DNA from: a virus
Taxonomy: Duplodnaviria > Caudoviricetes
Direction: 5' to 3' (one strand)
DNA length: 28,835 bases
IMG/VR virus record: IMGVR_UViG_3300017913_000891
Span: 1 to 28,835 of that record
Shown here piece after piece: positions 7,590 to 28,438 of this stretch. The position numbers and the translations under genes were made by a program. Numbering within the stretch: position 1 is the first letter of the stretch; every line of letters begins with the position of its first letter. The notes beneath the pieces were generated by a model, which searched no databases, was not told the DNA's origin, and was given only the letters and a program-made list of their open reading frames with translations.

Positions 7590-7617
7590 TTGACACTTTC
7601 AAAGTGTTACATATAAC
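7590..7617 (+). promoter_or_regulatory. Sigma70-type promoter for the capsid operon with an overlapping palindromic operator
   Basis: TTGACA (7590-7595), 16 bp, TATAAC (7612-7617). Perfect inverted repeat ACACTTT-C-AAAGTGT at 7593-7607. Confidence 0.65.
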
Positions 7618-7622
7618 TACGT

Positions 7623-7755
7623 GTATCTATAAGTAGAGCCTCCTTAGGGACTACCTCTACACGATACTTTTCCCTTTAAAAGTCTAAACTATGTAAAGAA
7701 CTACCTGATCTATTACAGGCCCACGTAAGTGTTACCCTGGAACGTCAGCCCCTTT
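7623..7755 (+). ncRNA. Structured 5' leader of the capsid mRNA with three YUAC/CC internal loops
   Basis: Stems GTATC/GATAC, GTAGAG/CTCTAC, TCC/GGA, CTGA/TCAG, CAGG/CCTG and CAC-GTAA-GTG (GNRA tetraloop). CC lies opposite CTAC or TTAC at three of the junctions. Confidence 0.6.
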
Positions 7756-7804
7756 CAAGGTGTTTAAGCTTTATTCATAAGCCAAATATCATGGAGGATT
7801 AATT

Positions 7805-8878: not shown

Positions 8879-8892
8879 GGGAGGATTGACTT

Positions 8893-9303
8893 ATGGCTAA
8901 ATCTACTTCTTTGCTTTCAAAAGCAATCATGGTTGAAAAGCAAGTTGAACTTCCAACTTCAACTGGTACAGTAACAGGTCCAACTGTTGGAGCAGGTACT
9001 CTTGTTCTAGCAGCAGGTGTTGAGTTGATTGATGCAATGGATTCAGCAGACTACGATGTTACAGTTACTGATGGCACAACTACATTTATGGCTGCTACAG
9101 CAGTTGACAGTGGTTCTGCAGGTGACTTTGCATTCGGTACTCAAACACAGGGTATCATTGCTTCAGAAGACACCATTGACGTAACAGGTACTGCAGGTGC
9201 TGCTCCAGCAGCAACAGTGACTGCTCGTGTATGGGCAATCGTTGTTGATGTGAATGAAGCAACCAAAGGTGCAGACGAAGTTGATCGTGACTTGCTTGCA
9301 TAA
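8893..9303 (+). CDS. Putative capsid decoration/minor capsid protein
   Basis: 136 aa, beta-rich and Thr/Ala/Gly-rich, strong GGGAGG RBS. Lies between the capsid gene and the terminator, so it is likely expressed at high copy. Confidence 0.55.
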   Translation: MAKSTSLLSKAIMVEKQVELPTSTGTVTGPTVGAGTLVLAAGVELIDAMDSADYDVTVTDGTTTFMAATAVDSGSAGDFAFGTQTQGIIASEDTIDVTGTAGAAPAATVTARVWAIVVDVNEATKGADEVDRDLLA

Positions 9304-9316
9304 CTGATTTAACTTT

Positions 9317-9340
9317 AGGGGCTGGGAGACTGGCCCCTTT
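9317..9340 (+). terminator. Intrinsic terminator after the capsid/decoration genes (probably leaky)
   Basis: AGGGGCTGG-GAGA-CTGGCCCCT stem (2 G-U pairs, GNRA loop) ending in only TTT. Position is analogous to T7 Tphi. Confidence 0.7.
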
Positions 9341-9363
9341 AGGCTATCTGAAGGATTTTTGTA

Positions 9364-10092
9364 ATGGCTACTTACGTTACACTAGTTAATGAATTACTTA
9401 CTAGACTGAATGAAGTCACACTAGATACTGCTGGTGATGGGTTTGGTACAGTACGTAACGTGCAGTCACTGGCTAAACAAGCAGTAAATAACTCCATTAG
9501 AAATATCTTACAGACAGGCCAAGAGTGGCCTTTCTTAAAAAATACTTATACCCAAACATTAACTGCAGGAACAAGACAGTATGACTTTCCTGCAGATTAT
9601 TCTAGAGCAGACTGGCAGACTTTTTATCTTAAGAAGTTGACATCTGTTGATAACACACCTATGTCTTTACCTAGTATTACTTATGATGAGTACATTCAAA
9701 GGTACAGACACTTTGATGACACAGGTGAGCAAACAGGTATTTCTGCACCTACCCTTGTCTACCAAACAAATGAAGAGAAGTTTGGTGTAACACCTATTCC
9801 AGATGAAGCATACGAAATTGAGTACATCTACTGGTCATTCCCTGCAGACCTAACTGCTTACAATGATACAACAGTTATTCCAGACAGATTTAAACATGTA
9901 ATCATTGATGGTGCTATGATGTACATGATGAGATTCAGATCTAATGAGCAGAGTGCTGCAGTACACCAAGGTGTGTTCCAAGAGGGTATCAAGTCTATGA
10001 GAAGAATACTTGTTGATGAACCCTTACGTATTAGATCAACTGTAGTAGAAAGAATTAACTCTTCTAACCAAGTACTGGGTAGAGTTCTCTAA
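9364..10092 (+). CDS. Head-tail adaptor / tail tubular protein A-like
   Basis: Position after the capsid genes. 'TYVTLVNELLTRLNE', 'EWPF' and 'IPDRFKHVIIDGA' are typical adaptor patterns. Confidence 0.7.
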   Translation: MATYVTLVNELLTRLNEVTLDTAGDGFGTVRNVQSLAKQAVNNSIRNILQTGQEWPFLKNTYTQTLTAGTRQYDFPADYSRADWQTFYLKKLTSVDNTPMSLPSITYDEYIQRYRHFDDTGEQTGISAPTLVYQTNEEKFGVTPIPDEAYEIEYIYWSFPADLTAYNDTTVIPDRFKHVIIDGAMMYMMRFRSNEQSAAVHQGVFQEGIKSMRRILVDEPLRIRSTVVERINSSNQVLGRVL

Positions 10093-11633
10093 TGGCAGAC
10101 AATTTAGGTTCATTTAAAGTATTTGCTGAAGGGGGTCTTAACACTAACAGAGATGTTCTATCTCAAGGTGAAAGACAACCTGGTTCAGCTACGTTGCTAG
10201 TCAACTATGAACCTGCTGTTACAGGTGGCTACAGACGTATCAGTGGTTTTAGTAACGACTATGGTGAGGTTACAGGTACAGGAAGTGTACTTGGTGTAGC
10301 AGTAGCAGATGGAATTAACGATGGTATCTTAGCTGCTCGTGCACCTTCTAGTGGTAATAACTACTTACACTACTGGGACGATACTACAGAGGCTTGGGTT
10401 GCAGTAACTACTTCTGGTTCACCTACAATGACAGGTGTAGGAAAAGTACGTTTTACTAGGTTTAATTTTGGTAGCCCTAAAGTTCTTCTTACAGATGGTG
10501 TAAATCCTGCTGCTACCTACGATGGTACAACGTACACTCAAATCACACATGCTAATGCTCCTACAGATCCTAAGTATTCTGCAGTCTTTAAGAAGCACAT
10601 GTTCTTAGCAGGTGATCCAGCAGAAGATCAGAACCTTTACTTCAGTGCACCAGATGACGAAACAAAGTGGGCACCTGCAGATGGTGGTGGTGTTATTAAT
10701 GTAGGTTTTCCTATTGTAGCTATTAAACCATTCAGAGATCAACTTTTTATCTTTGGTACAACAAACATTAAAAGACTACAAGGTAACAATATATCTGATT
10801 TTGTTTTAAGTGAAGTTACAGATGACCTTGGATGTCTAGCAACAGATAGTGTTGTAGAGATTGGAGGGGATATTCTCTTCTTATCTCAAGATGGTTTAAG
10901 ACCAGTTTCAGGTACTAATAAAATTGGTGACGTAAACCTTGAATCTCTTTCAAAGAACATTCAATCTATCTTTACAGATGTTATCTTTGACATTGATCTA
11001 AATGGATTATCTAGTGTAGTTATCCACCAGAAATCTCAGTTAAGACTATTCTTTTCAGGGGCAGATACAACTGGTATTATAGCAGGTTTTAGAGAAAACC
11101 AATCAGGTGGTATTTCTTTAGAGTTTGGTCAGCTTTTAGGTATTCAGGCTACTTGTGCAGACAGTGGGTATTTAGGTCAATATGAATATGTAATTCATGG
11201 GGATAGTTCTGGTAAAGTACACAGACAAGAACAAGGTTCAGACTTTGATGGATCAGAAATATTTAGTGTTTATCAAACACCTTTTCTACATATGCAAGAT
11301 CCAGAGCAACGTAAGATTATACATACTGTAGCTACTTATTTAAGATCAGAAGGCGATAATAATATAGTTCTTTCTGTTCTATTTGATTATGAAGACTTTG
11401 ATACATTAAGTCCTAATAACTTTGATTTAATCACTGAGAATGCAGCAGCCTACTATAATGAGGCACTATATGACAGCACTGCTGTTTTTGATGGCAACCC
11501 TGCACCAGTAAAAAGAACTAATATTTCAGGATCAGGAAAGTCAGTGGCTTTTAAATATGTGACAAATGACACTAATGCTTCACACAGTATCCAAGGTATT
11601 GTCGTGACGTTTGGAGTGGGGGATAGACTATAA
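10092..11633 (+). CDS. Tail nozzle / tail tubular protein B-like (beta-propeller, P22 gp10/T7 gp12 analogue)
   Basis: TAATG coupling to the adaptor gene. N-terminal 'GGLNT', propeller-type strands ('HMFLAG..LYFSA', 'LGCLATDSV', 'ILFLSQDG'). Confidence 0.7.
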   Translation: MADNLGSFKVFAEGGLNTNRDVLSQGERQPGSATLLVNYEPAVTGGYRRISGFSNDYGEVTGTGSVLGVAVADGINDGILAARAPSSGNNYLHYWDDTTEAWVAVTTSGSPTMTGVGKVRFTRFNFGSPKVLLTDGVNPAATYDGTTYTQITHANAPTDPKYSAVFKKHMFLAGDPAEDQNLYFSAPDDETKWAPADGGGVINVGFPIVAIKPFRDQLFIFGTTNIKRLQGNNISDFVLSEVTDDLGCLATDSVVEIGGDILFLSQDGLRPVSGTNKIGDVNLESLSKNIQSIFTDVIFDIDLNGLSSVVIHQKSQLRLFFSGADTTGIIAGFRENQSGGISLEFGQLLGIQATCADSGYLGQYEYVIHGDSSGKVHRQEQGSDFDGSEIFSVYQTPFLHMQDPEQRKIIHTVATYLRSEGDNNIVLSVLFDYEDFDTLSPNNFDLITENAAAYYNEALYDSTAVFDGNPAPVKRTNISGSGKSVAFKYVTNDTNASHSIQGIVVTFGVGDRL

Positions 11634-14600
11634 ATGGCAGGTTATTGTAGACAGAGTGCAGCAGACATTATTGCAAGTGCAGTAATTAAAGCTGCACCAG
11701 TTAATGCAGAGTTTAACTGTGTAAGGGATGCATTTAACTCAAGCACAGGACACAAACATGATGGCACTTCAACTGAAGGTGCTTATGTCCCACTTATTGC
11801 AGACCCAGATGCTAATAATAAGGTTTGTATTGATACTTCAAATAATAGAGTTAGCTTTTTTACAGAAGTGTCTTCAAATCCAGTTGAGCAACTAAGAGTA
11901 CAAGATGGTGCCATTGTCCCTGCCACTGACGATGATATTGATCTTGGTGTAACAACTACAAACAGATTTAAAAACCTATTCCTTGCTGGAAATGCTACTG
12001 TTGCAGGAACCTCCACAGTCACAGGCAACAGTACTTTCGGAGGAACACTAGGTATTACAGGTGTTACTACATTTTCAGATACCATCTGTGGTACAAACTT
12101 CTGCAGCACAGGAACTTCAACTCTAGCCACAGTAGACATTAATGCAGGTAATATTGACAATACTGTTATTGGTGCCACCACTGCTGCTGCTGGTAGCTTT
12201 ACTACACTTAGCACGACAGGACAGGGTACTTTTGCTACAGTCGATGTCAATGGGGGTACTATTGATGGTGCTGTTATTGGTGGTAGCACAGCAGGTGCTG
12301 TAACAGGGACAACAGTCACAGCTAATACTTGCTTCGTGGGTGATATCACTGGTAATGTTACAGGTGCAGTCACAGGTAATGTAACAGGTAATCTGACAGG
12401 TAACGTTACTGGAAATGTTACTGGAGACCTTACAGGAGATGTGACAGGGAACGTTACAGGTGACGTAACTGGTGATCTGACTGGAGATGTAACAGGCAAT
12501 GTTACTGGTAACGTTACAGGCAACTTAACTGGTGATGTAACGTCCACAGGTACATCTACTTTCTGTGACATCAACATGTCTGGTACAGCAGGTATTGATC
12601 TAGGGTCTGCTAAGATTACTTCTGTTGCAGATCCAACTGCTGATGGGGATGCAGCCAATAAATGTTATGTTGACACACAGATTAGTAACCTTATTGGGGG
12701 TGCACCTGATGCCCTTGACACACTTAATGAACTAGCTGCAGCTATCAACGATGATGCTGCATTCTATACATCTGTTACAACTTGTTTAGGTACTAAGCTA
12801 AACAAATCAGGTGGCACTATGACAGGGGATATTTCCCTTGGTGCTAACAAAGCTACCTCTACAGCTACACCTACTACAGATGATACACTGACTCGTAAGG
12901 GTTATGTTGATACACAAGATGCTTTAAAACTTAGCTTGACTGGTGGAACCATGTCAGGTGCTATTGCTATGGGCACATCAAAGATCACAGGGCTAGGTGA
13001 TCCAACTGCAGCCCAAGATGCAGCAACAAAGACGTACACAGATACTCAACGTGATACAAGACTAGCATTGTCTGGTGGTACTATGACTGGTGCCATTGAC
13101 ATGGGTGCCAATAAGATAACTACGACTTATACACCAACTGACAATGCTGACCTTACAACAAAGACTTATGTTGATGATATCTTAGGTTCTGCTACATGTG
13201 CAGAGGCATCATGTGTTTGTGCTGCTGCCAGTGCTACTGCTGCAGCTACAAGTGCTAGTTGTGCATCTGCTTCTCAGACTGCTGCTGCAACTTCAGCATC
13301 TTGTGCTGCATCATCATACGATCAGTTTGATGACAGATACCTTGGAGATAAGAGTGGAGAACCATCTGTAGATAATGATGGTGATGCCCTACTTACTGGT
13401 GCTCTTTATTATGACACAACAGACAATCAACTAAGAATTTATACTGGATCTGCTTGGTCTAATGCAGCATTTACTTTAGGTGATGCTCTTACTTGTATTC
13501 AAGAAGATACTTCTCCAACTCTTGGTGGAAACCTTAATGCTAACTCTCAGTGTATTACAAATGCTACAAGTGTTTGTGGTACAAACTTTTATGGAGCACT
13601 TACAGGTGATGTTACAGGTAACGTAACTGGTTGTGTTTCTACACTTGCAAACTTTAACTCTTCTGATGTTTGCTTTAACTCTGTCTGTGTAGCAGGTAAC
13701 CCAACTCAGGCTTGCCAACTAGCAACTAAAGAATACGTTGACACGATTGCTGCTGCTGGTCTACACTACCATGACCCTGTACGTGTTGAGAGAGAAGGTA
13801 ACCTAAGTGCTACCTACGACAATGGTACGAATGGTGTAGGTGCTACACTTACCAATAACAGTACACAGGCTGCTCTTAGTATTGATGGTGTTACACTATC
13901 TCTCAATGATCGTGTACTTCTTTATGAACAAACAGATGCTACACAGAATGGTATCTACACAGTTACTAACGTAGGTTCTGGATCTACTAACTGGGTTCTT
14001 ACTCGTGCTACAGATGCTGACAGCTATGGTGCTTCAGATAAAGATGCACTGGGTGAAGGTGATGCATTCTTCGTACTGGAAGGTAATGAAGGTGCTGGTG
14101 AGCTTTATGTCATGTCTACCACAGGTACAATTACTTTTGGTACAACTAACATTTCATTCTCACAAGTTGCTGCTACTGCTGTCTACTCTGCAGGAACAGG
14201 TATTACACAAACTGGTACTCAGTTCTCTATTGGTCAAGACGTAGGTACAACAGATGCTGTAACTTTCTCGTGTGTTTGTACAAGTAACTGCCTTAAAGCC
14301 CCTACTATTTGTGCTACCAGCAGTGTTCAGTTCCCTGACAATTCCTGTGCTACTTTTGGTGCAAGTGGTGACCTAAATATTTTTCATAATGGAAGTCACA
14401 GTGTAATAAGTGAAGGTGGCACAGGAAATCTAAGGCTACAAGGCAATGATTTAGCTTTAGAAACTTCTGGTGGGACATCTTATTTAACAGCAGCAAATAA
14501 TGGCTCTGTAGCTGCATATTATGCAGGTTCAGAAAAATTAACTACTAAGTCTTATGGTGCTCAAACAACTGGATGCCACTGTGCAACTGTTTGTTCAAAA

Positions 14601-14930
14601 TCACCAATAGTGTGTGGTAGTACCTGTGTCGTAGCTCCTGACATCAATGCTACTTCTGACTGCAGATGTAAGGACAACATCACTACAGTAGATAATGCTT
14701 ACTGTAAGATCGGTCAGATCAGAGGTGTGAACTATAACTGGAAAGACTCAGGTAAGTACACAATGGGTGTTGTTGCTCAAGAAGTAGAAGAAGCATTCCC
14801 AGAACTTGTTACAACAGATGACGATGGCTACAAATCAGTCAACTATAATGGCTTGGTAGGTGCACTCATTGAAACTGTGAAGTGTCTACAAGGTAAAGTA
14901 GAGGAACTAGAGAATGGCTCTAAAGGTTAG
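11634..14930 (+). CDS. Tail fibre with C-terminal peptidase S74 intramolecular chaperone domain; unusually Cys-substituted
   Basis: N-terminal anchor ('NAEFN..GHKHDG'), G[ND][VL]T repeats, 'DAATKxYVD'-type neck repeats, Ala/Ser/Thr coiled coil. C-terminal 'SDCRCKDNI..IRGVNYNWK..GVVAQEVEEAFPELV..VNYNGLVGALIETVK' matches the S74 pattern. Confidence 0.88.
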   Translation: MAGYCRQSAADIIASAVIKAAPVNAEFNCVRDAFNSSTGHKHDGTSTEGAYVPLIADPDANNKVCIDTSNNRVSFFTEVSSNPVEQLRVQDGAIVPATDDDIDLGVTTTNRFKNLFLAGNATVAGTSTVTGNSTFGGTLGITGVTTFSDTICGTNFCSTGTSTLATVDINAGNIDNTVIGATTAAAGSFTTLSTTGQGTFATVDVNGGTIDGAVIGGSTAGAVTGTTVTANTCFVGDITGNVTGAVTGNVTGNLTGNVTGNVTGDLTGDVTGNVTGDVTGDLTGDVTGNVTGNVTGNLTGDVTSTGTSTFCDINMSGTAGIDLGSAKITSVADPTADGDAANKCYVDTQISNLIGGAPDALDTLNELAAAINDDAAFYTSVTTCLGTKLNKSGGTMTGDISLGANKATSTATPTTDDTLTRKGYVDTQDALKLSLTGGTMSGAIAMGTSKITGLGDPTAAQDAATKTYTDTQRDTRLALSGGTMTGAIDMGANKITTTYTPTDNADLTTKTYVDDILGSATCAEASCVCAAASATAAATSASCASASQTAAATSASCAASSYDQFDDRYLGDKSGEPSVDNDGDALLTGALYYDTTDNQLRIYTGSAWSNAAFTLGDALTCIQEDTSPTLGGNLNANSQCITNATSVCGTNFYGALTGDVTGNVTGCVSTLANFNSSDVCFNSVCVAGNPTQACQLATKEYVDTIAAAGLHYHDPVRVEREGNLSATYDNGTNGVGATLTNNSTQAALSIDGVTLSLNDRVLLYEQTDATQNGIYTVTNVGSGSTNWVLTRATDADSYGASDKDALGEGDAFFVLEGNEGAGELYVMSTTGTITFGTTNISFSQVAATAVYSAGTGITQTGTQFSIGQDVGTTDAVTFSCVCTSNCLKAPTICATSSVQFPDNSCATFGASGDLNIFHNGSHSVISEGGTGNLRLQGNDLALETSGGTSYLTAANNGSVAAYYAGSEKLTTKSYGAQTTGCHCATVCSKSPIVCGSTCVVAPDINATSDCRCKDNITTVDNAYCKIGQIRGVNYNWKDSGKYTMGVVAQEVEEAFPELVTTDDDGYKSVNYNGLVGALIETVKCLQGKVEELENGSKG
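12339..12542 (+). repeat. 17 tandem degenerate 12-bp repeats encoding G-[NDA]-[VLI]-T
   Basis: Translation GDIT GNVT GAVT GNVT GNLT GNVT GNVT GDLT GDVT GNVT GDVT GDLT GDVT GNVT GNVT GNLT GDVT. Confidence 0.9.
12795..13175 (+). repeat. Three ~44-aa tail-fibre shaft repeats ([KR]LxxxGGTM[ST]GxIx[LM]Gx[NS]K[AI]T...KxY[VT]D)
   Basis: KLNKSGGTMTGDISLGANKAT..KGYVD / KLSLTGGTMSGAIAMGTSKIT..KTYTD / RLALSGGTMTGAIDMGANKIT..KTYVD. Confidence 0.8.
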
Positions 14931-15129
14931 TGGTACAACTGTTATTGATGACAGTAAAAACATTCCTTCAGGAACACCATCAGTACAGGGGACGATAGTA
15001 TCAGCTAACGTCCTCACAATACCTTCTGGTACTACAGCACAAAGACCTGCATCCCCAAACACAGGTCACATCTTTTTTGATACAGATGTAGGTACTGTAG
15101 TTTCTTACAATGGAACTACTTGGGTTTAA
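14914..15129 (+). CDS. Small tail-fibre-associated protein, paralogue of the N-terminus of the next ORF
   Basis: GAGGA RBS. MALKVSGTTVIDDSKN..PSGTTAQRPASP.TG.IFFDTD.G...SYNGTTW aligns end-to-end with residues 1-70 of the 1156-aa ORF. Confidence 0.8.
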   Translation: MALKVSGTTVIDDSKNIPSGTPSVQGTIVSANVLTIPSGTTAQRPASPNTGHIFFDTDVGTVVSYNGTTWV

Positions 15130-15169: not shown

Positions 15170-18100
15170 ATGGCTTATAAGATTAATGGAACCACAGTGG
15201 TTGATAACAGCAGGAACGTATGTGCCTGTTGTGTTACTTCTTGCTGTATCACAGCTAGTAATAGGATGGATGCCCCTAGTGGTACTACAGCACAGAGGCC
15301 AAGTTCTCCTGCTACTGGGTCTATTTACTTTGATACAGATCTAGGTTCTCTTATATCTTATAATGGTACAACTTGGAATGCTGTTGGTGGAAGCTCTGTA
15401 GGTCTTGGAGTTTCTTCAGGGCTTGTTAATTCCCCTTCTGATGCTTGGTCTGCTACATATCTTAATGCAGCACCAAAGACACAGTGTAGGGGTGTTAGAA
15501 ACAGTTGTATGTCAAATGATGGTTTTTGTAACTTACAAATATGTAGATGCTTACCTTACTATAAATGTGAATACGAAGCAGAAGTGTGTTGGGCTGGTCA
15601 ATGGAAATATCCTTGGGACTGTTCCTGTGGTGCATTAACCAGGTACTGGTGTGTTTTATCTAAACAAGGGGCACCCAATTGTGATGGGCAGCATGGTTAC
15701 AGTAATCTTTTTTGTGGTGATCACACTTGTGTTGTATCAATACCATCTTATTGCTGCCAAGGTATTTCTTGGGAATTTTTTGAAGATGGTTCAATCTGTC
15801 ATACCAACTTTGACTGTAGTCCAACTGGTTCTGTATCTTGTGGTTGTACTGCAAGTATAACCTCAATACACTTTGATAAGTACGGTAATAACTTTTTATA
15901 TACAAACTTTCATATAACTCCTTCACTTTGCCCTTCCTCTCCAAATTGGGTTCCTGAAAATAGTTTGTTTTATATGAACTTTATAGGGAGAGGGGTGAAT
16001 GGACCTATTGCTCCTTTAAGAAATTGTTTAGATTCATACTTAGAAAGTCCTTTAGTACATAAGGTTGGATGCACCTGCTACGTTTTTGAAGTTTGCACAG
16101 ATTATATTTCTAGTTTTGGTTATGAAGTTTGTGATATAGCTCGTGCCTGGTGCAGCCCATTTAATTCAACTTGTATGCCACAAGAAAAACTTAACCAAAT
16201 GGGGGGTGCTCATTTTAAGAGGCAAACAGGTATAGATATCGCAGGTGTTTGTCCAAGATTTCTTTCAAGCACTATAGTAGGAGGTACAACTGTATGTTGT
16301 CCACCTTGTGCTATGCGTCAATGGTCTTACATCTCTAAATGTCCATCCTACGACAAGACCAGTCCTTCTGCTTACATTGCAAAAGAGGGAACATGCTCTT
16401 CATCAGGACTTAAGGTAGGATTTTCGTATGAAGCTGCATGTAACTCAATAGCTTACTTAAGAATGTTAGACTGGAACTGTTGTTATAGACAAGGGGGTCT
16501 TTATAATTTCTGCTGTGGTCAAGGTGTTTACTGGTCTTCAGAAGATAACTGTTGTATGTTCCACGTCTATTTCCCAGATCAAAACTGTGGATCTGGTTGG
16601 GACTGTTTTACCTGCAGTACTCTGTGTAGTTTAAGTACTGGGATATGCGTCAATGGGTCCAACCCATACCCAGCACTTGAGGTTATAAACACAACAAATG
16701 GCTGTGTTGTGTGTTCAATTTATTGGTTAGGTTGGTACGACTGCCAAGTATCAGGTGCAGAATACGATAAGGCAGTATTCGGTACAAGAAACTGGTTTGG
16801 TGTTGCTCCTCTAACTTATAGACAGGCTCCAAGGGATAGGCATAAACGTAGAAATGTTTTCTCTGAAAGCACTTCAAGTGTTGATGGTTACCCTATGTGT
16901 GCAATTAGATCATGTAATTGCCCAGGAATTATCTACTTCTTACCTTACAATCAAAATGGGTGTAGATCTTCTAGGTTCTCTATTTTTGATGAATGTAATT
17001 TAAAATTTGTAGGTGTACAACCTGTCACTCTTTTACACTCAGCATGTCTATACACTAAAACTAAATGTTTGTTAGGTGGGGTTCAAGGTGTTTACCTAAC
17101 TTCTGGTACTGCTTATAATTGCTTATCATGTGCATTCTGCTGCACCTACGATACAACTAGTACTACACCAAGAAGAGTTTGTAGTTTGTGGACAACACTT
17201 ACTGGAGGTTGTTTAGCAAATACATCTGCGTGTTGTGATTTACGTTTTGATTTCCCAACACCATGTTTAAGTGATCCTTACTGCTTTGGAGATACTTACT
17301 ATATCAACCCAGAGACTGATCACCTAGTTACTTTCTACTCTTTAGCTTATTATTCTGGTACACTTGCAAGGACAACTAAATGGATTGGTGCAGTCTGTTG
17401 GGATATCTGGAATTGCTGTATAACTAGAGTAGAAACTCTATGGCCTACTTCAGGTGAAAAATGTATTGCAGGTCTTTGCTGTGGTCTATGTTGTTGGGGA
17501 ACCCTTGATTGGACAGACGCAAATGGATGCTTAAAAGCTGCAGGTAATTTCTGCATGTGTACTAACACCTGTAACTCTGGCCCTTACATTAAGAAAAGAG
17601 TGGCAATGGTGGGTAGAACGTATGGTGACAGCCTTTCTGAAGGTGGTTTCAGTTATATAGTTACCCCTAATGTAGGTGCTGCAGATGGAATGGCTATACT
17701 ATCCTCTTGTAGGATTTGTAACTGTCCTGGTGGAGCATGTGGTACTTGTCTGACCTGTGGTACTTGTATGGGTTACTTTGGACCATGCCAAATAGGTGGA
17801 TGCGTATATAGAAACACTTGCTGTTGTACTAACTGTAAAGAAGGTTTGAATAGGGTTAATCCTAGCTTTGGTGTAGGAAGAGTTCCTTACTCAAAACCAT
17901 TAAAGTGTACAGAAATGTTTGAAGAAGACGCAGGGGTAAAATGTTTCATTGAAATGGTCCTTGGTTGTCACGATATTGGTTGTGCTCTTTACTGTAATAA
18001 CCAGTGTCAAATTGACAAGGAAGTTTATTCTTACTTTGCACCATGCTTCTATTGCACAGTAGATATTACCTGTCAGTTTACTTGTGGTTGTACAAATGTT

Positions 18101-18640
18101 TACACTTGGGGTGGAACATGCTGGTGTAGTGCTTGCAGATGGCAGATTTGGGATACAAGTACAACCTGTGTTTGTTATTGCAGATATTCTTACATTGATT
18201 CGCCAACTAACTGCTGCGAAACTATGTTAGACATGGTTAGTTATGATTGTTGCTGTGGTTTCTGTTGCTTTAAAGTTTGCTGTGTTGATAATGGGAATGT
18301 TTATATATGTTGTAATCTAGCTAATTCCTGTGCTTGTCTTACTTGTGAAAACTTTGCTGCTGTCCCAACAGCCCTGATCTGTATTTGTACAGAAAACCTA
18401 TTTAGGGGTGTAGCAGATCATAGAAGATTTACAAATCCATCTGGAGAAGTAAGAATTATAGGATACGACACAGGGGGTAGTAGGGAAGCTGAATGTTTTA
18501 TTAGTGATTCTTGTGGACGTGTTAGACATTCAGGTCATGACAATTACTTCTCTAATCTATGTCAACCCTGCTGTTGCTTGAAAGGTCTATCAGGACCAGT
18601 TAAGTACTGGTTTGATAAATATTACGCAGAGATATTGTAA
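15170..18640 (+). CDS. Very Cys-rich putative distal tail-fibre/receptor-binding protein, 1156 aa
   Basis: AGGA RBS. N-terminal 'PSGTTAQRP..G.IYFDTD..YNGTTW' fibre-junction motif. About 134 Cys by hand count, with many CC, CCC and CxC. No family recognised for the body. Confidence 0.7.
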   Translation: MAYKINGTTVVDNSRNVCACCVTSCCITASNRMDAPSGTTAQRPSSPATGSIYFDTDLGSLISYNGTTWNAVGGSSVGLGVSSGLVNSPSDAWSATYLNAAPKTQCRGVRNSCMSNDGFCNLQICRCLPYYKCEYEAEVCWAGQWKYPWDCSCGALTRYWCVLSKQGAPNCDGQHGYSNLFCGDHTCVVSIPSYCCQGISWEFFEDGSICHTNFDCSPTGSVSCGCTASITSIHFDKYGNNFLYTNFHITPSLCPSSPNWVPENSLFYMNFIGRGVNGPIAPLRNCLDSYLESPLVHKVGCTCYVFEVCTDYISSFGYEVCDIARAWCSPFNSTCMPQEKLNQMGGAHFKRQTGIDIAGVCPRFLSSTIVGGTTVCCPPCAMRQWSYISKCPSYDKTSPSAYIAKEGTCSSSGLKVGFSYEAACNSIAYLRMLDWNCCYRQGGLYNFCCGQGVYWSSEDNCCMFHVYFPDQNCGSGWDCFTCSTLCSLSTGICVNGSNPYPALEVINTTNGCVVCSIYWLGWYDCQVSGAEYDKAVFGTRNWFGVAPLTYRQAPRDRHKRRNVFSESTSSVDGYPMCAIRSCNCPGIIYFLPYNQNGCRSSRFSIFDECNLKFVGVQPVTLLHSACLYTKTKCLLGGVQGVYLTSGTAYNCLSCAFCCTYDTTSTTPRRVCSLWTTLTGGCLANTSACCDLRFDFPTPCLSDPYCFGDTYYINPETDHLVTFYSLAYYSGTLARTTKWIGAVCWDIWNCCITRVETLWPTSGEKCIAGLCCGLCCWGTLDWTDANGCLKAAGNFCMCTNTCNSGPYIKKRVAMVGRTYGDSLSEGGFSYIVTPNVGAADGMAILSSCRICNCPGGACGTCLTCGTCMGYFGPCQIGGCVYRNTCCCTNCKEGLNRVNPSFGVGRVPYSKPLKCTEMFEEDAGVKCFIEMVLGCHDIGCALYCNNQCQIDKEVYSYFAPCFYCTVDITCQFTCGCTNVYTWGGTCWCSACRWQIWDTSTTCVCYCRYSYIDSPTNCCETMLDMVSYDCCCGFCCFKVCCVDNGNVYICCNLANSCACLTCENFAAVPTALICICTENLFRGVADHRRFTNPSGEVRIIGYDTGGSREAECFISDSCGRVRHSGHDNYFSNLCQPCCCLKGLSGPVKYWFDKYYAEIL

Positions 18641-18714: not shown

Positions 18715-19641
18715 ATGAAAACTGTTTTTATGATTGATGGTGGTGCAGGTAGGGCTATAGCAGCTATTCCTGCCCTCATCAAGTACTCAAAGAAAAACAA
18801 AGACTTTAGAATTATGGTTATGGGTTGGGATTCTCTGTACTGGGGTATTCCAGAACTACATGATAAAGTCTTTAACCCAGATCAAAAGGGTGCCTTTGAA
18901 CAATTCTTTATGGATGCTGATAGAGTTATTTCTCCAGAACCATACAGAGTTCCAGGGTACTACAGACAAGAAAAGTCTCTTGCTGAAGCTTTTGATTACT
19001 TAATCAATGAGACTGATGATCATTCTGATCTTGGTTCTCCTGTTCTTAAAACAAATAGAAACGAAGAGTTGCAAGCTGCTAACTTTATGCAGTCTGTCAG
19101 ACAGCAGCAACAGAAGCAGAAGACTATTGTTATACAGCCTTTTGGTAGATCTATTGAAAAACCACAAGAAGGTGTTTTGCTTGATCAGTCTTCTCGTTCT
19201 ATTAATCCAGATACGTATCTTAAATTAGCAAAGAAACTAGCAACAAAATATAACCTAGTTTTATTTGCTGAGAAAAACTTCTGGATGCCTGAAGACACAT
19301 ACACCATGAAGCCTGAAGCAGATCTTCGTATGTGGTCAGCATTTATTGATGCAGCAGATTACTTTATTGGATGTGATTCTGCAGGTCAGCACATGGCTAG
19401 AGCATTCAACAAACCTGGCACAGTAATTATAGGGTCTACGTTTGCTATAAACACTACGTACCCTAACCACTTCAACATCATAGAAAGGGATACTCCAAAA
19501 GTTTACTCACCTATTCGTATCTCAGGGCTAGAATCTCACTTGGCAGATAGAGCAAATGAAGGTACTGTAGAATTTACAGATGACGAAATAAACAAGATGT
19601 ATGCTGACATTGTAAAAGACATCGAAAAGAAGGTGAAGTAA
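18715..19641 (+). CDS. GT9-family (ADP-heptose heptosyltransferase-like) glycosyltransferase, with Arg at the catalytic-base position
   Basis: N-terminal 'GGAGRAIAAIPAL' is in register with WaaC 'SSMGDVLHTLPAL'. 'IVIQPFG' and the GT9 donor-binding signature 'ADYFIGCDSAGQHMARAFNKPGTVIIGST'. Confidence 0.85.
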   Translation: MKTVFMIDGGAGRAIAAIPALIKYSKKNKDFRIMVMGWDSLYWGIPELHDKVFNPDQKGAFEQFFMDADRVISPEPYRVPGYYRQEKSLAEAFDYLINETDDHSDLGSPVLKTNRNEELQAANFMQSVRQQQQKQKTIVIQPFGRSIEKPQEGVLLDQSSRSINPDTYLKLAKKLATKYNLVLFAEKNFWMPEDTYTMKPEADLRMWSAFIDAADYFIGCDSAGQHMARAFNKPGTVIIGSTFAINTTYPNHFNIIERDTPKVYSPIRISGLESHLADRANEGTVEFTDDEINKMYADIVKDIEKKVK

Positions 19642-19642
19642 A

Positions 19643-21358
19643 ATGAATATCCTAGCAATTAACCCAGGTCATAATGGTTCTGCTGCTTTATTAGTAGATG
19701 GTGAACTAAAGTTCTACGTTGAAGAGGAACGTCTATCTCGTAATAAATATGATGGTAACCCATTCATGGGTATCATCGAAGGACTTAAGTATGGCATAGA
19801 TGTCCTTATCCTTGGTGGGACTACTCCCCAAATGCCACAACTATTCTGGACTGGTGAAGATCCTTACAGTGCTTTAGTTCGTAAGCATAACCCAAATGTA
19901 CAAGTCCTTAATCTTGCCCACCTACATCACCTTGGTCATGCAGCAGGTGCATTCTATGCTTCAGGTTTTGAAGATGCTGCAGCAGTCATTGTAGATGGTT
20001 CTGGCAGTAGACACGAGATTCAATTCAATGAAGAGGGAGCAAAGAACCCTGGATTTGAAACTGAGAGTATTTTTAATTGTGACTATGAGGTAGGAATTAA
20101 ACCTGTATTCCAGTCGTTTGGGGGTAATCAAGATACTCAAAGATTGATTGGTGAAGAAATAGAAATGGACTCAGCAATTACTCTTGTAAAAGCTTATGAG
20201 GCTGTTTCACACTACCTTGGTTTTGGTTATATTGAAGCAGGTAAGACTATGGGTCTTGCACCTTATGGGAAGTACGATGAAATGATTCCTAGCCTATTCT
20301 TCAATGGTAGAGGAAATAAGAATGTATTTATCCCTAACTATCCTGCTGGTGCTCATATTGATCATAGTCGCCACCCCTACCTAGCTCTTACAGAAGATCC
20401 TCAGACTTGGCACACTGATCCTAGTAAAGTAACAGATGCAGCTAAAAACTTAGCTTGGGCAGTACAAGACGAAACACAGACTCTTGTAGGTGACTTGATT
20501 GAAAAAGCTGTTAAGATGACTGGCAAAAAGAACATTGTTATTGCTGGTGGTTATGGCCTTAACTGTGTAGCAAACTACTACTACAAGAAACGTTTCCCTG
20601 ACCTTAATATCTTTGTTGACCCTATTTCACATGATGGTGGAACAGCTATTGGATTGGCATACTTAGCACACTACACAGAAACTAAGGACACTACAAAACG
20701 TCCACTAAAAACTCTGTACCTTGGTCCTGAACGTGAAGAAGAGTATGACTTTGGTGATATTAAAACAGAGAAAGTAAAACCTGCTGATGTAGCAAAGCTT
20801 ATCTCTGAGAAGAATATCGTAGCTCTTTATCAAGGACGTTCTGAGGCTGGACCTCGTGCATTGGGTAATCGTTCTATTTTGTACGATCCCACAGATCCTA
20901 ATGGTAAGGATACTGTGAACAAGGTCAAAGGACGTGAGTGGTTTAGACCATTTGCTGGCTCCATGATGCAGGAGCACTTTGAGGAATGGTTCGAGACATA
21001 TGGAATGGAAGAGTCACCATTCATGATGTATGCAATGGACTTCAAGTTAGAAAAGCATGGTGAGTGTCCTGCTATCACACACGTAGATGGTACATGTCGT
21101 ATTCAGACTGTGACTAAAGAGCAGAATGAAACATACCATACTCTGATTGATGAGTTCAGAAAGATTACTGGTGTACCTATCTTGTTCAACACTAGCTTCA
21201 ACCTAGCAGGTGAGCCACTGGTAGAAACACTGGACGATGCAATGAGAACAATTAAAAACTCAGACATCAATTACTTGTATCTACCAGAGATGGGTAAGTT
21301 AATTCACTACCCTCACAATGACTCAGTAATTGAAGAAGTAAAGGAAGAGGCTGCTTAA
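19643..21358 (+). CDS. O-carbamoyltransferase, NodU/CmcH/TobZ family
   Basis: Motifs 'EEERLSRNK', 'HHLGHAAGAFY', 'DGSG', 'GKTMGLAPYG', 'AGGYGLNCVAN', 'GPRALGNRSIL', 'REWFRPFA', 'HVDGTCRIQTV', 'NTSFNLAGEPLVET'. Confidence 0.95.
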   Translation: MNILAINPGHNGSAALLVDGELKFYVEEERLSRNKYDGNPFMGIIEGLKYGIDVLILGGTTPQMPQLFWTGEDPYSALVRKHNPNVQVLNLAHLHHLGHAAGAFYASGFEDAAAVIVDGSGSRHEIQFNEEGAKNPGFETESIFNCDYEVGIKPVFQSFGGNQDTQRLIGEEIEMDSAITLVKAYEAVSHYLGFGYIEAGKTMGLAPYGKYDEMIPSLFFNGRGNKNVFIPNYPAGAHIDHSRHPYLALTEDPQTWHTDPSKVTDAAKNLAWAVQDETQTLVGDLIEKAVKMTGKKNIVIAGGYGLNCVANYYYKKRFPDLNIFVDPISHDGGTAIGLAYLAHYTETKDTTKRPLKTLYLGPEREEEYDFGDIKTEKVKPADVAKLISEKNIVALYQGRSEAGPRALGNRSILYDPTDPNGKDTVNKVKGREWFRPFAGSMMQEHFEEWFETYGMEESPFMMYAMDFKLEKHGECPAITHVDGTCRIQTVTKEQNETYHTLIDEFRKITGVPILFNTSFNLAGEPLVETLDDAMRTIKNSDINYLYLPEMGKLIHYPHNDSVIEEVKEEAA

Positions 21359-22002
21359 GGTAGCCTATCCACAAATTGAAGGAGGTTATCGAAAACCTTA
21401 GTCTTCTTTCTTAACTTCTCTTTTGAGAACTTCTTTAGCTCTCCTTCAGTGTCCACCCCATGACCAGTTCTTACTAAGATTGGGGTGGCACCAATTCTCT
21501 CAGCAGCTTTAAGGTCAGACATCTTATCACCTACATAAAAACCTTTATCCTTGAACCTAATCTTTCCACCAAATACTTCTTTCTCTGCCCTGTGAAACAT
21601 ACCTAAGTTAGGCTTGGCATATATATCTTCTTTCAATGATGATTCAGAGTAGAAGAGACCATCAATAGTGTAGATACCTGCATTACCAAAGATTTCAAAC
21701 ATACGTTGATGTACAGCTTCTACCTGCTCATGTGTTTGTAGACCTTTAATAATACCCCCCTGGTTAGTTAATATTACCACTTTGTAGCCTTTTATACGAA
21801 GCTTGTGGATAGCTGCCAGGGACTCAGGGTACACCTCAAAGTCTTCAGGGTCTGTGATGTAGTGTCCTTTATCTACGTTGATAACACCATCACGATCTAG
21901 ACCTACAATAGACTTAGGGAAGACTGTAGGCCAATCTGGTGGTAACTCTTGTTGAGGTTGTTGACTTGGTTCTTGTGTAATAATATGTTTAAATCTGGAC
22001 AT
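21355..22002 (-). CDS. gmhB: D,D-heptose 1,7-bisphosphate phosphatase (HAD IIIA)
   Basis: 'LDRDGVIN', 'TNQGG', 'KPNLGM', 'VGDKMSDLKAA', 'LVRTGHG', plus context among ADP-heptose genes. Confidence 0.9.
   Translation of the reverse strand: MSRFKHIITQEPSQQPQQELPPDWPTVFPKSIVGLDRDGVINVDKGHYITDPEDFEVYPESLAAIHKLRIKGYKVVILTNQGGIIKGLQTHEQVEAVHQRMFEIFGNAGIYTIDGLFYSESSLKEDIYAKPNLGMFHRAEKEVFGGKIRFKDKGFYVGDKMSDLKAAERIGATPILVRTGHGVDTEGELKKFSKEKLRKKTKVFDNLLQFVDRLP
21961..21989 (+). promoter_or_regulatory. Candidate sigma70 promoter for hldC-hldA-cupin-hldD, embedded in the gmhB 5' coding region
   Basis: TTGACT (21961-21966), 17 bp, TATGTT (21984-21989), 30 nt before ATG 22020. Confidence 0.5.
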
Positions 22003-22019
22003 ATTAGGATCTTTACCTC

Positions 22020-22430
22020 ATGAAGAAAGTTTTTGTTAATGGTGCATTCGATGTACTGCACTCTGGGCACCTAGATCTCCTTGATTTTGCAGGGATGTTA
22101 GGTGGTCATTTGTTAGTAGCTATTGACACAGACAGGCGTATTGAGTATAACAAGGGTACTGGGAGACCTTTTAATCCTTTGTCAATACGTAAACATATAA
22201 TGTCTATGTTGAAGCCTGTCAATAGTGTTAGAGTATTTGATACAGACGAGGACTTAGTAGAGATTATAAAAGCTTATCAGCCTGATGTAATGGTAAAAGG
22301 ATCTGATTGGAAGGGGAAGACAATACTTGGGGAGGAGTACTGTAAAGAAATAGTATTCTACGAGAGAACCAATGGGCAGTCTACCACAAAAACAATCGAA
22401 GATTTTATTACTAGGCGACAGTTGTTATGA
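22020..22430 (+). CDS. hldC: Heptose 1-phosphate adenylyltransferase (RfaE/HldE domain II, stand-alone)
   Basis: HxGH nucleotidyltransferase motif 'NGAFDVLHSGH', 'KG..RP', 'PDVMVKGSDW', 'STT'. Confidence 0.85.
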   Translation: MKKVFVNGAFDVLHSGHLDLLDFAGMLGGHLLVAIDTDRRIEYNKGTGRPFNPLSIRKHIMSMLKPVNSVRVFDTDEDLVEIIKAYQPDVMVKGSDWKGKTILGEEYCKEIVFYERTNGQSTTKTIEDFITRRQLL

Positions 22431-23130
22431 TGAATATCACACAGGCACTGTAACCAGAATAAGCCCAGAGGCACCTGTTCCTGTCTTTGATCTTACCTCA
22501 ACTGTAATCAAAAGAGGTATGGCTTACAACGTCTACAACAACCTAGTTAATCTAGGTGCTAGGGTAGACATCATAACAGAGTACAGAGAACGTAAGCACA
22601 GATACCTTGAGGATAAGACTGGTCAGCAACTGATCAGAGTAGACGAAAAGATTAAGACTGAGCACATAGATACAGCAGACGAAGACGTAAGTATGTATGA
22701 TGCTGTAGTTATCTCAGACTACAACAAAGGTTTTATAGAAGATAACGACATAAAAGATTTCAGAGCTAAGTATAATGGCCCTATCTTTGTAGATACTAAG
22801 AAGACCAACCTAGCTCAGTTTGATGGCTGCTTTGTAAAGATAAACCAGTATGAACTGGAGGCAGCAGAAACACTAACAGACGAACTAATCGTCACGTATG
22901 GCTCAAAGAAAGTCGAGTATAAGAACAGAACTTACCTACCCCCCAGTGTAGAAACTCATGATGTGTGTGGTGCAGGAGATACATTCCTTGCAGGTCTTGT
23001 ATTCAACTATCTAGATACTTATGATATAGACAAGGCTATAAAATTTGCAATGGATGCAGCAGCCATAACTGTCCAACACAGAGGAGTCTATGCTCCTACA
23101 CTAGCAGAGGTAACACAACATGAGACTTGA
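22372..23130 (+). CDS. hldA: Heptose 7-phosphate kinase (RfaE/HldE domain I, PfkB family, stand-alone)
   Basis: 'LLGD..D.Y', 'RISPEAPVPV', 'ISDYNKG', PfkB signature 'DVCGAGDTF'. Exact start codon uncertain (59-nt overlap with hldC). Confidence 0.9.
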   Translation: MGSLPQKQSKILLLGDSCYDEYHTGTVTRISPEAPVPVFDLTSTVIKRGMAYNVYNNLVNLGARVDIITEYRERKHRYLEDKTGQQLIRVDEKIKTEHIDTADEDVSMYDAVVISDYNKGFIEDNDIKDFRAKYNGPIFVDTKKTNLAQFDGCFVKINQYELEAAETLTDELIVTYGSKKVEYKNRTYLPPSVETHDVCGAGDTFLAGLVFNYLDTYDIDKAIKFAMDAAAITVQHRGVYAPTLAEVTQHET

Positions 23131-23476
23131 AGGCTTCGTTAAGAAGGGCTGGGGTTCTGAACTTATATGGGTAACAAATGACGAGTATTGTAGTAAGTTT
23201 CTATCTTTTAATACTGGTGCTAAATTCTCTATGCACTTCCACAAAGATAAGAAAGAAAGTTGGTACGTTCTATCTGGCAAGTTTGAGGTTCTTTGGATCG
23301 ACACAGAGGACGCCACCACACACGTTGAGTCCTTGGGTGAGGGCGATGCCTGGACGAATCCGACTCTTGTACCTCATCAAATCATTTGCTTAGAAGAGGG
23401 TACAATCCTAGAGGTCTCTACTCCTGATTCTGTAGAAGATAATTACAGGGTAGCAAAAGGTGACAGTCAGGCATGA
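23120..23476 (+). CDS. Cupin-fold sugar isomerase-like protein (type II PMI C-terminal / lyxose-isomerase-like)
   Basis: 'KGWGSELIW', cupin motif 1 'SMHFHKDKKESWYVLSG', motif 2 'PHQ'. GAGG RBS, overlaps both neighbours. Confidence 0.8.
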   Translation: MRLEGFVKKGWGSELIWVTNDEYCSKFLSFNTGAKFSMHFHKDKKESWYVLSGKFEVLWIDTEDATTHVESLGEGDAWTNPTLVPHQIICLEEGTILEVSTPDSVEDNYRVAKGDSQA

Positions 23477-24243
23477 AAATACTAGTCACTGGGAGTAATG
23501 GCTTCATTGGGCAAAACATGGTCAATGCCCTGTCACCATACCACGAAGTGGTAAAGAATGAGTGGGGCATGTCCTTTCCTAAAGTAAAAGGACTGGACTG
23601 GGTAATACACTTAGGAGCTATTAGCTCCACGACTGAGACAAACATCTCTCGTATATACAGACAGAATGTAGAGTTCAGTATTAAGCTGTATGAAGAGTGC
23701 ATCAAACATAACGTTAAGTTTCAGTTTGCTTCCAGTGCTTCAGTCTATGGATTAAAGTCAGACTTCAAGGAGACATCTCCTGTTGATCCTCAGAACCATT
23801 ATGCTCGTAGTAAGGCATTGTTTGAAAAGTATGTAGAGTTTAGAAATGCTGATATCACTACTCAGATATTTAGATACTTCAACGTACATGGCCCCCACGA
23901 GGAGCACAAAGGAAACCAAGCAAGCCCCTTCACCAAGTTTATGGAACAGGCTAAGACGACTGGTAAGATAAAGATCTTCAAGGGTTCTCCTAAGTATTTA
24001 AGAGACTTTATCCACGTAGGTAAAGTTGTGATGGATCATCAGAGGTTCTTTGATATAGACGAGTCAGGTATATGGAATTTTGGCACAGGTAAAACTCGTA
24101 GCTTCTACGATGTAGCCCTAGAAGTCTCAGGTAAGACTGGTGCAACTATAGAATTTATTGATTTCCCAGAGAATTTAAAAGGTAATTACCAAGAGTTTAC
24201 TAAAGCAGATACGACAAAGCTTAGGAAGACTTTATCATTATAA
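23473..24243 (+). CDS. hldD: ADP-L-glycero-D-manno-heptose 6-epimerase-like extended SDR
   Basis: 'VTGSNGFIG', 'HLGAISSTTE', 'ASSASVYG', YxxxK 'YARSK', 'RYFNVHGPHEEHKGNQAS', 'RDFIHV', 'YQEFTKAD', all matching RfaD/HldD. Confidence 0.9.
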   Translation: MKILVTGSNGFIGQNMVNALSPYHEVVKNEWGMSFPKVKGLDWVIHLGAISSTTETNISRIYRQNVEFSIKLYEECIKHNVKFQFASSASVYGLKSDFKETSPVDPQNHYARSKALFEKYVEFRNADITTQIFRYFNVHGPHEEHKGNQASPFTKFMEQAKTTGKIKIFKGSPKYLRDFIHVGKVVMDHQRFFDIDESGIWNFGTGKTRSFYDVALEVSGKTGATIEFIDFPENLKGNYQEFTKADTTKLRKTLSL

Positions 24244-27583: not shown

Positions 27584-28438
27584 ATGTATAATTTAAATCA
27601 GCCAGTACAGAGTGAACCTAAAGCCTCTGAAAGAATAGCAAGTAAAAGAAGTAAACATGCTGTAGGTTCTGGTAAGCAACAAGCTAAGAGAGCCTTAGGT
27701 CAGATTGATACAGACCTTATCCCAGGGATGAAGCAACCTGAGGTAAGTGGTGGTGAGGCTGTAGGTTCTTACAGAACTGCCATGAATGAGTACAGAGCTA
27801 CAATGTCAGACGCAGTTTCTAAATCTAAGAAATCTGGAGATGATTACTCTGACTTGGAAGACAACTATGGAGAGGATGCTATAGCATCTAGACCCCCTGA
27901 GTATACCCCACAACCAAGACTTCGTGGTGACAGTGGTAAGATTAGTTATGATGACAGTGCAAAAAAACTTCAGCGTGAATCTGGTGATGAAGACTTCATA
28001 GGATCTGTGGAACGTCTAGCTGAAAAGTATAATATTACAACAAGAGAAGTTTATGAAATTATTGATGGTGAGTCTAACTGGACTCCTGATTCTGTTAACT
28101 CTCTAGGATATAAAACTCTATTCCAGTTTGGCAAAGATGCTATCACAGATATAAACAAGTTTACTGATGCGAATGTAGACTATAAGACAATAGAGAAACT
28201 ATCACCTTCTGAACAAGTAGAACTCTACGATAAACATCTTGAAAGATGGGGCTACGATGGTAGTGTTCCACTAGCTGTAATGCAAGCTGCTCCTGCTAAA
28301 GCTAAAAACTTAAAGGGTAAGCCAGACAGTACAGTTGTTTATTCAAAGAACTCTAAAGAGTGGAAAGCAAACCCTGGATGGAGATCAAAGAATGATGGCC
28401 CAATTACACTTGGTAGTCTCAAAGGATATTATGGGTAG
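27584..28438 (+). CDS. Putative ejection protein with C-terminal lytic transglycosylase (SLT/lysozyme-like) domain
   Basis: 'AEKYNI..VYEIIDGESNWTPDSVNSLGYKTLFQF' resembles SLT motifs I-II (catalytic Glu in 'ES', then GLxQ-like 'TLFQF'). Confidence 0.65.
   Translation: MYNLNQPVQSEPKASERIASKRSKHAVGSGKQQAKRALGQIDTDLIPGMKQPEVSGGEAVGSYRTAMNEYRATMSDAVSKSKKSGDDYSDLEDNYGEDAIASRPPEYTPQPRLRGDSGKISYDDSAKKLQRESGDEDFIGSVERLAEKYNITTREVYEIIDGESNWTPDSVNSLGYKTLFQFGKDAITDINKFTDANVDYKTIEKLSPSEQVELYDKHLERWGYDGSVPLAVMQAAPAKAKNLKGKPDSTVVYSKNSKEWKANPGWRSKNDGPITLGSLKGYYG

Follow-up and report, generated by a model that had tools for sequence, protein, structure and literature searches.

A GT9-fold phage enzyme with arginine at the catalytic-base position and its linkage to cysteine-rich tail genes

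One question raised by the 28,835-nucleotide stretch of DNA analysed here (the window; positions 1 to 28,835 of IMG/VR virus record IMGVR_UViG_3300017913_000891, Caudoviricetes) is what a sugar transferase with the fold of the lipopolysaccharide (LPS) heptosyltransferases does beside cysteine-rich tail genes, with an arginine where the enzymes of the LPS core hold their catalytic base. The gene, carried by a marine phage on the plus strand at 18715-19641, encodes a 308-aa protein assigned from its open reading frame (ORF), fold and profile to the GT9-fold glycosyltransferases, and belongs to PHROG 8954, annotated as of unknown function. A first-pass annotation had set its Arg13 on Asp13 of WaaC and proposed transfer to sulfur. 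With slightly more confidence than doubt, we predict that the enzyme uses ADP-heptose to place heptose on exposed cysteine thiols in the tail fibres of the phage itself, because of its fold, its intact donor site, the covariation of Arg13 with Glu75 and Arg268, and its linkage to cysteine-studded tail genes. The donor, acceptor, stereochemistry and purpose given below are those that we infer. A search of open-access literature showed no description of the enzyme or of an S-linked sugar on phage proteins.

Fold and acceptor site of the enzyme

The AlphaFold model of the enzyme (pLDDT 97.6) places residue 13 at the opening of helix 1, after strand 1. When the model was compared by VIA-align with 48,161 chains, the five best matches (Z 19.6-24.1) were all GT9-fold: 3tov (Z 24.1, rmsd 3.2, 276 residues aligned), WaaF (Z 21.9, rmsd 3.6, 270 aligned), the autotransporter heptosyltransferase TibC (Z 20.9, rmsd 3.0, 264 aligned), a subunit of the plant NDH complex that shares the GT9-like fold (7wff_a, 9grx_1; Z 19.9, rmsd 3.5, 259 aligned) and WaaC (Z 19.6, rmsd 3.6, 250 aligned). 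The sixth chain drops to Z 12.7, and Foldseek matches to GT9-fold chains have E-values of 1e-10 to 6e-9. Identity to WaaC and WaaF in structural alignment is 13-17%. A single-sequence search of the PDB with the enzyme found no relative, and a profile search of the PDB matched the C-terminal motif of WaaF and WaaC alone, besides spurious matches to UvrC. The enzyme scores 24 bits with TIGR02201/PRK10422, where the cut-offs are 170-467, and 17.6 bits with Pfam PF01075, under the cut-off of 22, so that the label GT9 stands on fold and profile. The enzyme is a GT9-fold family of its own, of at least 1,855 protein clusters, and lacks the catalytic aspartate that is the criterion for GT9 heptosyltransferases.

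In WaaC, Asp13 is the catalytic base and Asp261, His266 and Lys192 bind the heptose donor (10.1101/2021.06.16.448588). The E. coli K-12 sequences of WaaC, WaaF, WaaQ and WaaU, taken as references, have G12-D13, D261 and H266 in common, and profile-profile comparison of a 103-member family profile with these four (probability 97.9, E 6e-13) aligns residues 1-28 of the enzyme without gaps and sets R13 on D13, R161 on K192, D221 on D261 and H226 on H266. Against WaaC alone, just the C-terminal stretch 200-248 aligns, and the N-terminal register therefore depends on profiles; the gap-free alignment to WaaC first proposed holds between profiles but not with that single sequence. The placement of Arg13 itself (codon AGG, 18751-18753) was borne out by the profile alignment, with arginine in 89 of 98 sequences. 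The Asp, His and basic residue with which the C lobe of WaaC/WaaF-type enzymes binds heptose and phosphate are present as D221 and H226, within the donor-binding D221-S222...H226 motif (19375-19392), and Arg161 (19195-19197).

The family alignment comprised the query and 97 relatives of 265-410 aa, drawn from 150 representatives and 26-54% identical to the query. Position 13 is Arg in 89, Lys in 4, Cys, Ser and Ala in one each, a gap in 2, and Asp in none. Arg13 is likewise found in 118/120 close relatives, the remaining 2 being unmatched by the search pattern, and in all 144 unique family ORFs of the fetched loci. Decay of the enzyme, or a chance change, was rejected on the strength of that last count and of a near-invariant donor site, as the first reading of an intact DS..H motif had anticipated.

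The change at position 13 does not stand alone. Among the 89 Arg13 sequences, Glu75 (18937-18939, in an E-P-Y motif after strand 4) is kept in 89/89 and Arg268 (19516-19518) in 88/89, and both are kept in all 45 of those with 32% identity or less. Among the 7 non-Arg13 sequences, Glu75 remains in one and Arg268 in none, although P76, Y77, D221, S222 and H226 are kept in 7/7. In a quick tree, which carried long-branch warnings, five of these seven are nested at separate places among the Arg sequences and two Lys13 sequences form a sister group. Because the three residues are kept or lost jointly, the acceptor site has been rebuilt, with two Arg and one Glu, rather than altered at a point. Such an Arg-Glu-Arg site fits an anionic acceptor, and to that extent the original rationale for Arg13, stabilisation of an anionic nucleophile, stands; the site is not specific for sulfur. 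A search of viral contigs for neighbours of the triad-losing variants P0130 and P0141 found none, and a search for a wider Lys13 family was likewise without result.

Asp8 (18736-18738) was considered as a replacement base and rejected, being Asp in 58/98 sequences and Asn in 25/98. The near-invariant acids within residues 1-134 are just Glu75 and Glu117, at 94/98 each (counting Glu or Asp at 75); Glu117 lies in the linker helix, and Glu75 sits three residues past strand 4, in a loop that by Rossmann topology would adjoin the start of helix 1, like the Asp of the GT1 His-Asp dyad. Of the acidic residues that might occupy the base position, Asp8 is thus excluded and Glu75 stays a candidate, either as partner of Arg13 or as an alternative base. 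Were Glu75 to deprotonate, alone or via Arg13, a fibre Ser or Thr or a sugar hydroxyl, as in TibC, the enzyme would be an O-heptosyltransferase and the fibre cysteines would form stabilising disulfides or metal sites. We judge this unlikely. It draws on Glu75, since no other acid at the strand ends of the N lobe is near-invariant, on the place of TibC, which heptosylates serines of a neighbouring adhesin (PMC4358343), among the top folds, on Thr and Ser making up about a quarter of aligned fibre positions, and on a locus (L029, below) that keeps the enzyme with three fibre cysteines. It leaves unexplained, however, why unrelated fibres are studded with cysteine beside Arg-type genes only and not beside Asp-type GT9-like genes, and Glu75 disappears when Arg13 does, two Lys13 relatives having Asn there and yet lying beside cysteine-studded fibres.

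Linkage to cysteine-rich tail genes

A Cys-rich ORF was defined as one of at least 150 aa with at least 7% Cys in a 200-aa window, and a scorable locus as a unique enzyme with at least 5 kb upstream (n=107 of 144). Cys-rich ORFs are present at 101/107 scorable loci, and at 63/69, 30/32 and 8/10 when loci are clustered at 90%, 70% and 60% identity. A second sample was chosen by heptose kinase rather than by transferase (80 loci, the best of 573), and its Asp-type GT9-like genes were assigned from their motifs; here Cys-rich ORFs accompany 14/16 Arg-type loci, 1/14 with Asp-type GT9-like genes and 1/50 with neither (Fisher 2e-5). Of the two stray matches, one is a 153-aa zinc-finger-like ORF and the other an antisense shadow ORF; neither is a fibre, so that a Cys-rich fibre occurs in 0/14 loci with Asp-type genes. 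The suggestion that GR or GK versus GD variants be checked against neighbouring Cys-rich genes was thus fruitful: Arg/Lys-type enzymes track with such genes and Asp-type ones do not.

In each of eight annotated records from cyanophages or single-cell viruses, the enzyme has Cys-rich genes next to it. In the podovirus group of the window, the orthologous fibre is found in forms with 0-3 Cys and with 12-58 Cys, and the fibres of three sisters free of the cassette (L112, L122 and L123, tail module read to 10 kb) have 0-2; in some cassette-bearing phages this fibre is Cys-free and the cysteines lie in the following genes instead. Five annotated phage records with a heptose kinase and no enzyme have no Cys-rich ORF in 21-41 kb, although four of these are metabolic islands away from tail genes and hence an unfair control. 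Among 185,579 species genomes, the sole close matches are five contigs inside metagenome-assembled genomes (L346-L350), all with the Arg motif, a carbamoyltransferase and Cys-rich neighbours, and these are probably mis-binned phage DNA.

Searching with divergent family members extended the linkage to cultured phages and gave it its strongest support. In the N4-like Vibrio phages K479, D505 and SBP1 and in Aeromonas phage HJ05, the enzyme has Arg13, Glu75 and Arg268, and no carbamoyltransferase or heptose gene is annotated in the 30-41 kb fetched for each. The tail proteins beside the enzyme hold 39, 41, 41 and 23 Cys, respectively, against 0-5 in proteins such as capsid and portal. The enzyme gene of the Vibrio phages stands alone between two tail genes, and the cysteines of the tail protein stud a repetitive stalk, unrelated to the window fibre, which from its sequence is probably a coiled coil. 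The N-terminal domain of this tail protein is shared by 61 records; four enzyme-free ones from Vibrio phages were compared, and their tail proteins, with no enzyme within the 11-16 kb fetched, have 2, 2, 4 and 9 Cys. Fibre-like ORFs with 28 Cys each also occur close to the Lys13 enzymes of L360 and L361. These loci (L360, 2639-5464; L361, 3-1997 and 9971-11023) are virus-like contigs of low GC (25-33%), and their enzymes are without Glu75 and Arg268 and have a C-terminal four-Cys motif.

The breadth of this linkage bears on the possibility that the enzyme modifies the host surface, either the LPS core or a phosphate or carboxylate anion bound by the two Arg, so as to block superinfection, with the cysteines hitch-hiking in a host-recognition module. 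Modification of the host surface is the published view of such phage genes (PMC7029224), cyanophage genes of this kind are treated as LPS genes of unknown function (PMC3037559), the closest folds include LPS heptosyltransferases, the Arg-type enzymes form a single clade, and a cationic pocket suits any anion. Yet hosts and virions are diverse (marine podoviruses, cyanomyoviruses, N4-like vibriophages and an Aeromonas phage), while the Cys-studded neighbour is constant although the fibre itself is non-homologous, and the position of the gene alone between two tail genes in the Vibrio phages also argues against it. We regard this explanation as very unlikely.

Candidate acceptors and the cassette of the window

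The window, a linear virus record that is about 52% complete, encodes terminase, portal (SU10-type), capsid and adaptor proteins. Two products encoded upstream of the enzyme, all on the plus strand, are candidate acceptors: a tail fibre of 1098 aa with 35 Cys and a C-terminal S74 chaperone (11634-14930, from profile and orthologues), and a 1156-aa protein with 134 Cys, or 11.6% (15170-18640), whose N-terminal domain has a match to a family of virion structural proteins. In nine further virion or packaging ORFs of the window there are 3 Cys in 4,666 aa, and the enzyme itself has a single Cys. Beyond the N-terminal domain the 134-Cys protein has no family match, and an Atlas search with residues 80-1156 gave none. 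Between the two genes, at 14914-15129, lies a 71-aa Cys-free paralogue of that N-terminal domain (15170-15394), recognised by sequence comparison at 54% identity; the matching segment of the 134-Cys protein carries five Cys where the paralogue has none, a natural matched pair. Cysteine is present even in the start motif of the S74 chaperone (fibre residues 1010-1012, 14660-14670), where orthologues have Glu/Gln and Leu. Elsewhere in the window, the ORF at 27584-28438 has a weak SLT transglycosylase match (E 0.003, under the cut-off) and its product is probably, from sequence, an ejection protein.

At 71 site clusters of the fibre, the residues that face Cys in Cys-free orthologues are Ala (18), Thr (14), Gly (9), Asn (6), Leu (4), Val, Ser and Gln (3 each) and others. 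The substitution profile of Cys at these clusters is nearest to those of Ala, Asp, Ser, Gly and Glu and farthest from those of Val, Ile, Leu, Phe and Tyr, and polar or charged partners occur at 14/71 Cys sites versus 39/380 Val/Ile/Leu sites (p 0.04). Between the tail proteins of SBP1 and K479, six unshared Cys face K, T, E, Q, R and D. The comparison suggests that fibre cysteines occupy exposed positions and are not simple replacements of Ser or Thr, an arrangement with which disulfides remain compatible.

Immediately downstream of the enzyme is a TobZ/NodU-type carbamoyltransferase (19643-21358, plus strand, by profile), and in a first tally such a gene was adjacent to the enzyme in 69/75 scorable loci. 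At residues 10-11 the window protein has His-Asn in place of the His-Asp of TobZ. Cassette-linked carbamoyltransferases share this His-Asn, while His-Asp occurs in some second copies at those loci; the difference may reflect a different acceptor. As a driver of Cys-richness the carbamoyltransferase is weakened by L202, where the enzyme accompanies a 536-aa, 40-Cys ORF without it, by L360, L361 and the Vibrio and Aeromonas phages, and by L326 and L327, where it occurs without the enzyme and with no Cys-rich neighbour; because cysteines are present with the enzyme alone and absent with the carbamoyltransferase alone, the cysteines go with the enzyme. These loci also bear on whether the enzyme might act on Cys-rich fibres without S-glycosylation, either as a nucleotide-sugar-binding chaperone or pseudoenzyme or by N-glycosylation, for example after S-carbamoylation of cysteine. 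The presence of a GT9-fold chain as a subunit in the plant NDH complex (7wff_a, Z 19.9) gives the former a precedent, loss of the base in PtUGT1, which yielded an N-specific enzyme (PMC8819650), gives one for the latter, and the adjacency of the carbamoyltransferase and its His-Asn would also fit. We consider such action distinctly unlikely: the residues of the donor site hardly vary, genes of a donor pathway follow downstream, Cys-studded fibres accompany the enzyme with no carbamoyltransferase nearby, and the carbamoyltransferase by itself, in L326 and L327, does not bring them.

The pathway genes, all matched by profile, encode a GmhB-like heptose bisphosphate phosphatase (21355-22002), the sole minus-strand member of the set, an RfaE domain II-like heptose-1-phosphate adenylyltransferase (22020-22430), an RfaE domain I-like heptose-7-phosphate kinase (22372-23130), a cupin (23120-23476) and an HldD-like ADP-heptose 6-epimerase (23473-24243), the last four on the plus strand. 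For the GmhB-, RfaE-II-, RfaE-I- and HldD-like genes the best matches are heptose-pathway models, under equivalog cut-offs. Every step but one has a match among the heptose genes of the window (21355-24243): a GmhA-like isomerase was not detected. It is conceivable that S-glycosylation of the fibre is correct and that part of the family uses a donor other than heptose, as in many loci the fetched flank contains no heptose kinase and identity to WaaC and WaaF is low; this we think highly improbable, as the heptose-binding residues of WaaC are kept and in the window every step except the isomerase has a matching gene.

Sulfur transfer, its precedents and its meaning

In the mechanism that we propose, ADP-heptose, supplied in the window by the downstream genes and drawn from the host by phages with the enzyme alone, would be bound in the conserved C lobe. 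Glu75 and Arg268 would position Arg13 to create a cationic acceptor pocket, against which a fibre cysteine would be held as thiolate; requiring no general base, the thiolate would attack C1 with inversion to give a thioheptoside. The carbamoyltransferase would add an optional later tailoring of the sugar, and the outcome would be a densely sugar-coated fibre that is more hydrophilic, shielded, or altered in host binding. S-glycosylation by PtUGT1 needs no base (PMC8819650), a base-less glycosidase gave a thioglycoside yield of 92% instead of 61% once an Arg had been added (PMC9609006), and carbamoylated heptose occurs in the Pseudomonas LPS core (PMC8005017).

A number of observations weigh against this reading. 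The Arg-type enzymes form one clade in the quick tree, so that Arg versus Asp is a single evolutionary event in which the motif is inseparable from lineage, and the linkage counts and Fisher values suggest more independence than there is. A comparable glycine-rich loop that ends in Arg occurs in glycogen phosphorylase, and in several GT-B fucosyltransferases the base lies elsewhere, precedents for Arg at this spot without sulfur chemistry; Glu75 could, from its conservation, serve as a relocated base for a hydroxyl acceptor. In PtUGT1, N- and S-glycosylation both go without proton transfer and the His26Ala variant is N-specific, so that loss of the base is not specific for sulfur (PMC8819650); both this precedent and that of the glycosidase use low-pKa aromatic thiols, not protein cysteines. 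The polar excess at fibre Cys sites is modest and does not exceed that at Ala or Ser/Thr sites, and Cys commonly swaps with Ala or Ser in any case. Because SBP1 and K479 share 11 Cys and the 1156-aa protein has 22 adjacent Cys-Cys pairs, disulfides or metal binding would also fit. The neighbour of the Lys13 enzyme in pelagiphage HTVC111P holds just 12 Cys in 811 aa.

Furthermore, Arg13 is kept without a Cys-rich neighbour in 6/107 loci (L029, L193, L210, L213, L307 and L313). Two of these besides L029 have records that were checked, which are 14-16% complete, whereas L029, in contig G001 (47.7 kb, 85% complete), retains Arg13 along with most of the cassette and has no Cys-rich ORF anywhere on the contig. 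Its fibre holds just Cys5, Cys29 and Cys65, at the same positions as in the window fibre, where most orthologues have Thr/Ser, Ala and Val. The locus (4391-14897) is that of a sister podovirus, with the Arg enzyme and a cassette without the gmhB-like gene. Either this fibre is a three-site substrate, or it was swapped in recently, or the cysteines are not the target. The argument that Arg13 by itself gives independent support for S-transfer consequently fails, given a single clade, a chemistry that favours N-acceptors as well, the presence of Glu75 and these six loci. The arginine is a real feature of a GT9-type variant, for which viral protein S-heptosylation has, overall, about an even chance.

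Among known systems, the LPS core heptosyltransferases WaaC, WaaF and WaaQ (CAZy GT9; PDB 2h1f, 1psw, 3tov) match the enzyme in fold and donor residues; the phage enzyme differs in having Arg for Asp13 and the family-specific Glu75/Arg268 pair, in being viral and set among tail genes, and in scoring under the Pfam and NCBIfam cut-offs. The TibC/AAH autotransporter heptosyltransferases (PDB 4rap), which heptosylate a surface adhesin at many sites, also share the GT9-like fold (Z 20.9), and the linkage of the phage gene to Cys-rich fibres would fit their arrangement beside the adhesin gene. TibC acts on serine acceptors through Asp110, and it possesses a barrel at the N-terminus and an iron finger of four Cys (PMC4358343); neither the barrel nor the finger is present in the phage enzyme, of which model residues 1-308 align to TibC 97-391. 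The cyanomyovirus 'LPS gene' block T4-GC 302-308 (P-SSM2 gp307-313, S-SSM7 gp120-133, S-CAM1, S-CAM3) includes members of the same enzyme family, annotated as hypothetical, and there, as in the window, the carbamoyltransferase and heptose genes lie behind Cys-rich tail genes. The excerpted text of PMC3037559 describes the block as LPS genes of unknown function and mentions neither the enzyme nor cysteine.

Glycocin S-glycosyltransferases and OGT place a sugar on the Cys sulfur of a ribosomally made protein, as proposed here, and differ in fold or family, in their hexose donors, in modifying few sites per substrate and in not being viral. The SunS-type glycocin enzymes are GT2 with a GT-A fold, unlike the GT-B, GT9-like model of the phage enzyme, and OGT performs S-GlcNAcylation. 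Glycosyltransferases encoded by mycobacteriophages decorate virion proteins with O-linked glycans on the capsid and tail tube; they are unrelated to the GT9-fold enzyme.

In its broadest form the proposal, which we hold to be evenly poised between right and wrong, is of a widespread family of viral protein S-heptosyltransferases, whose rebuilt Arg-Glu-Arg site would heptosylate, with optional carbamoylation, from tens to more than 100 Cys per fibre chain. Unrelated phages, having acquired the enzyme, would repeatedly have changed surface positions to Cys in fibres of coiled-coil, beta-rich and glycine-rich kinds, and their virions would be coated with thioglycosides. S-glycosylation of proteins is described as a rare modification that involves no sugars but Glc, Gal and GlcNAc (PMC11242366). 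If true, the proposal would extend it to heptose, to a catalyst of GT9 fold, to viruses and to very dense modification, would provide a natural broad-scope enzyme for hydrolysis-resistant thioglycoproteins, and would give a function to the 'LPS genes' of long-studied cyanophages. The cultured Vibrio and Aeromonas phages, with a single enzyme gene beside one Cys-studded tail protein, make the question directly testable.
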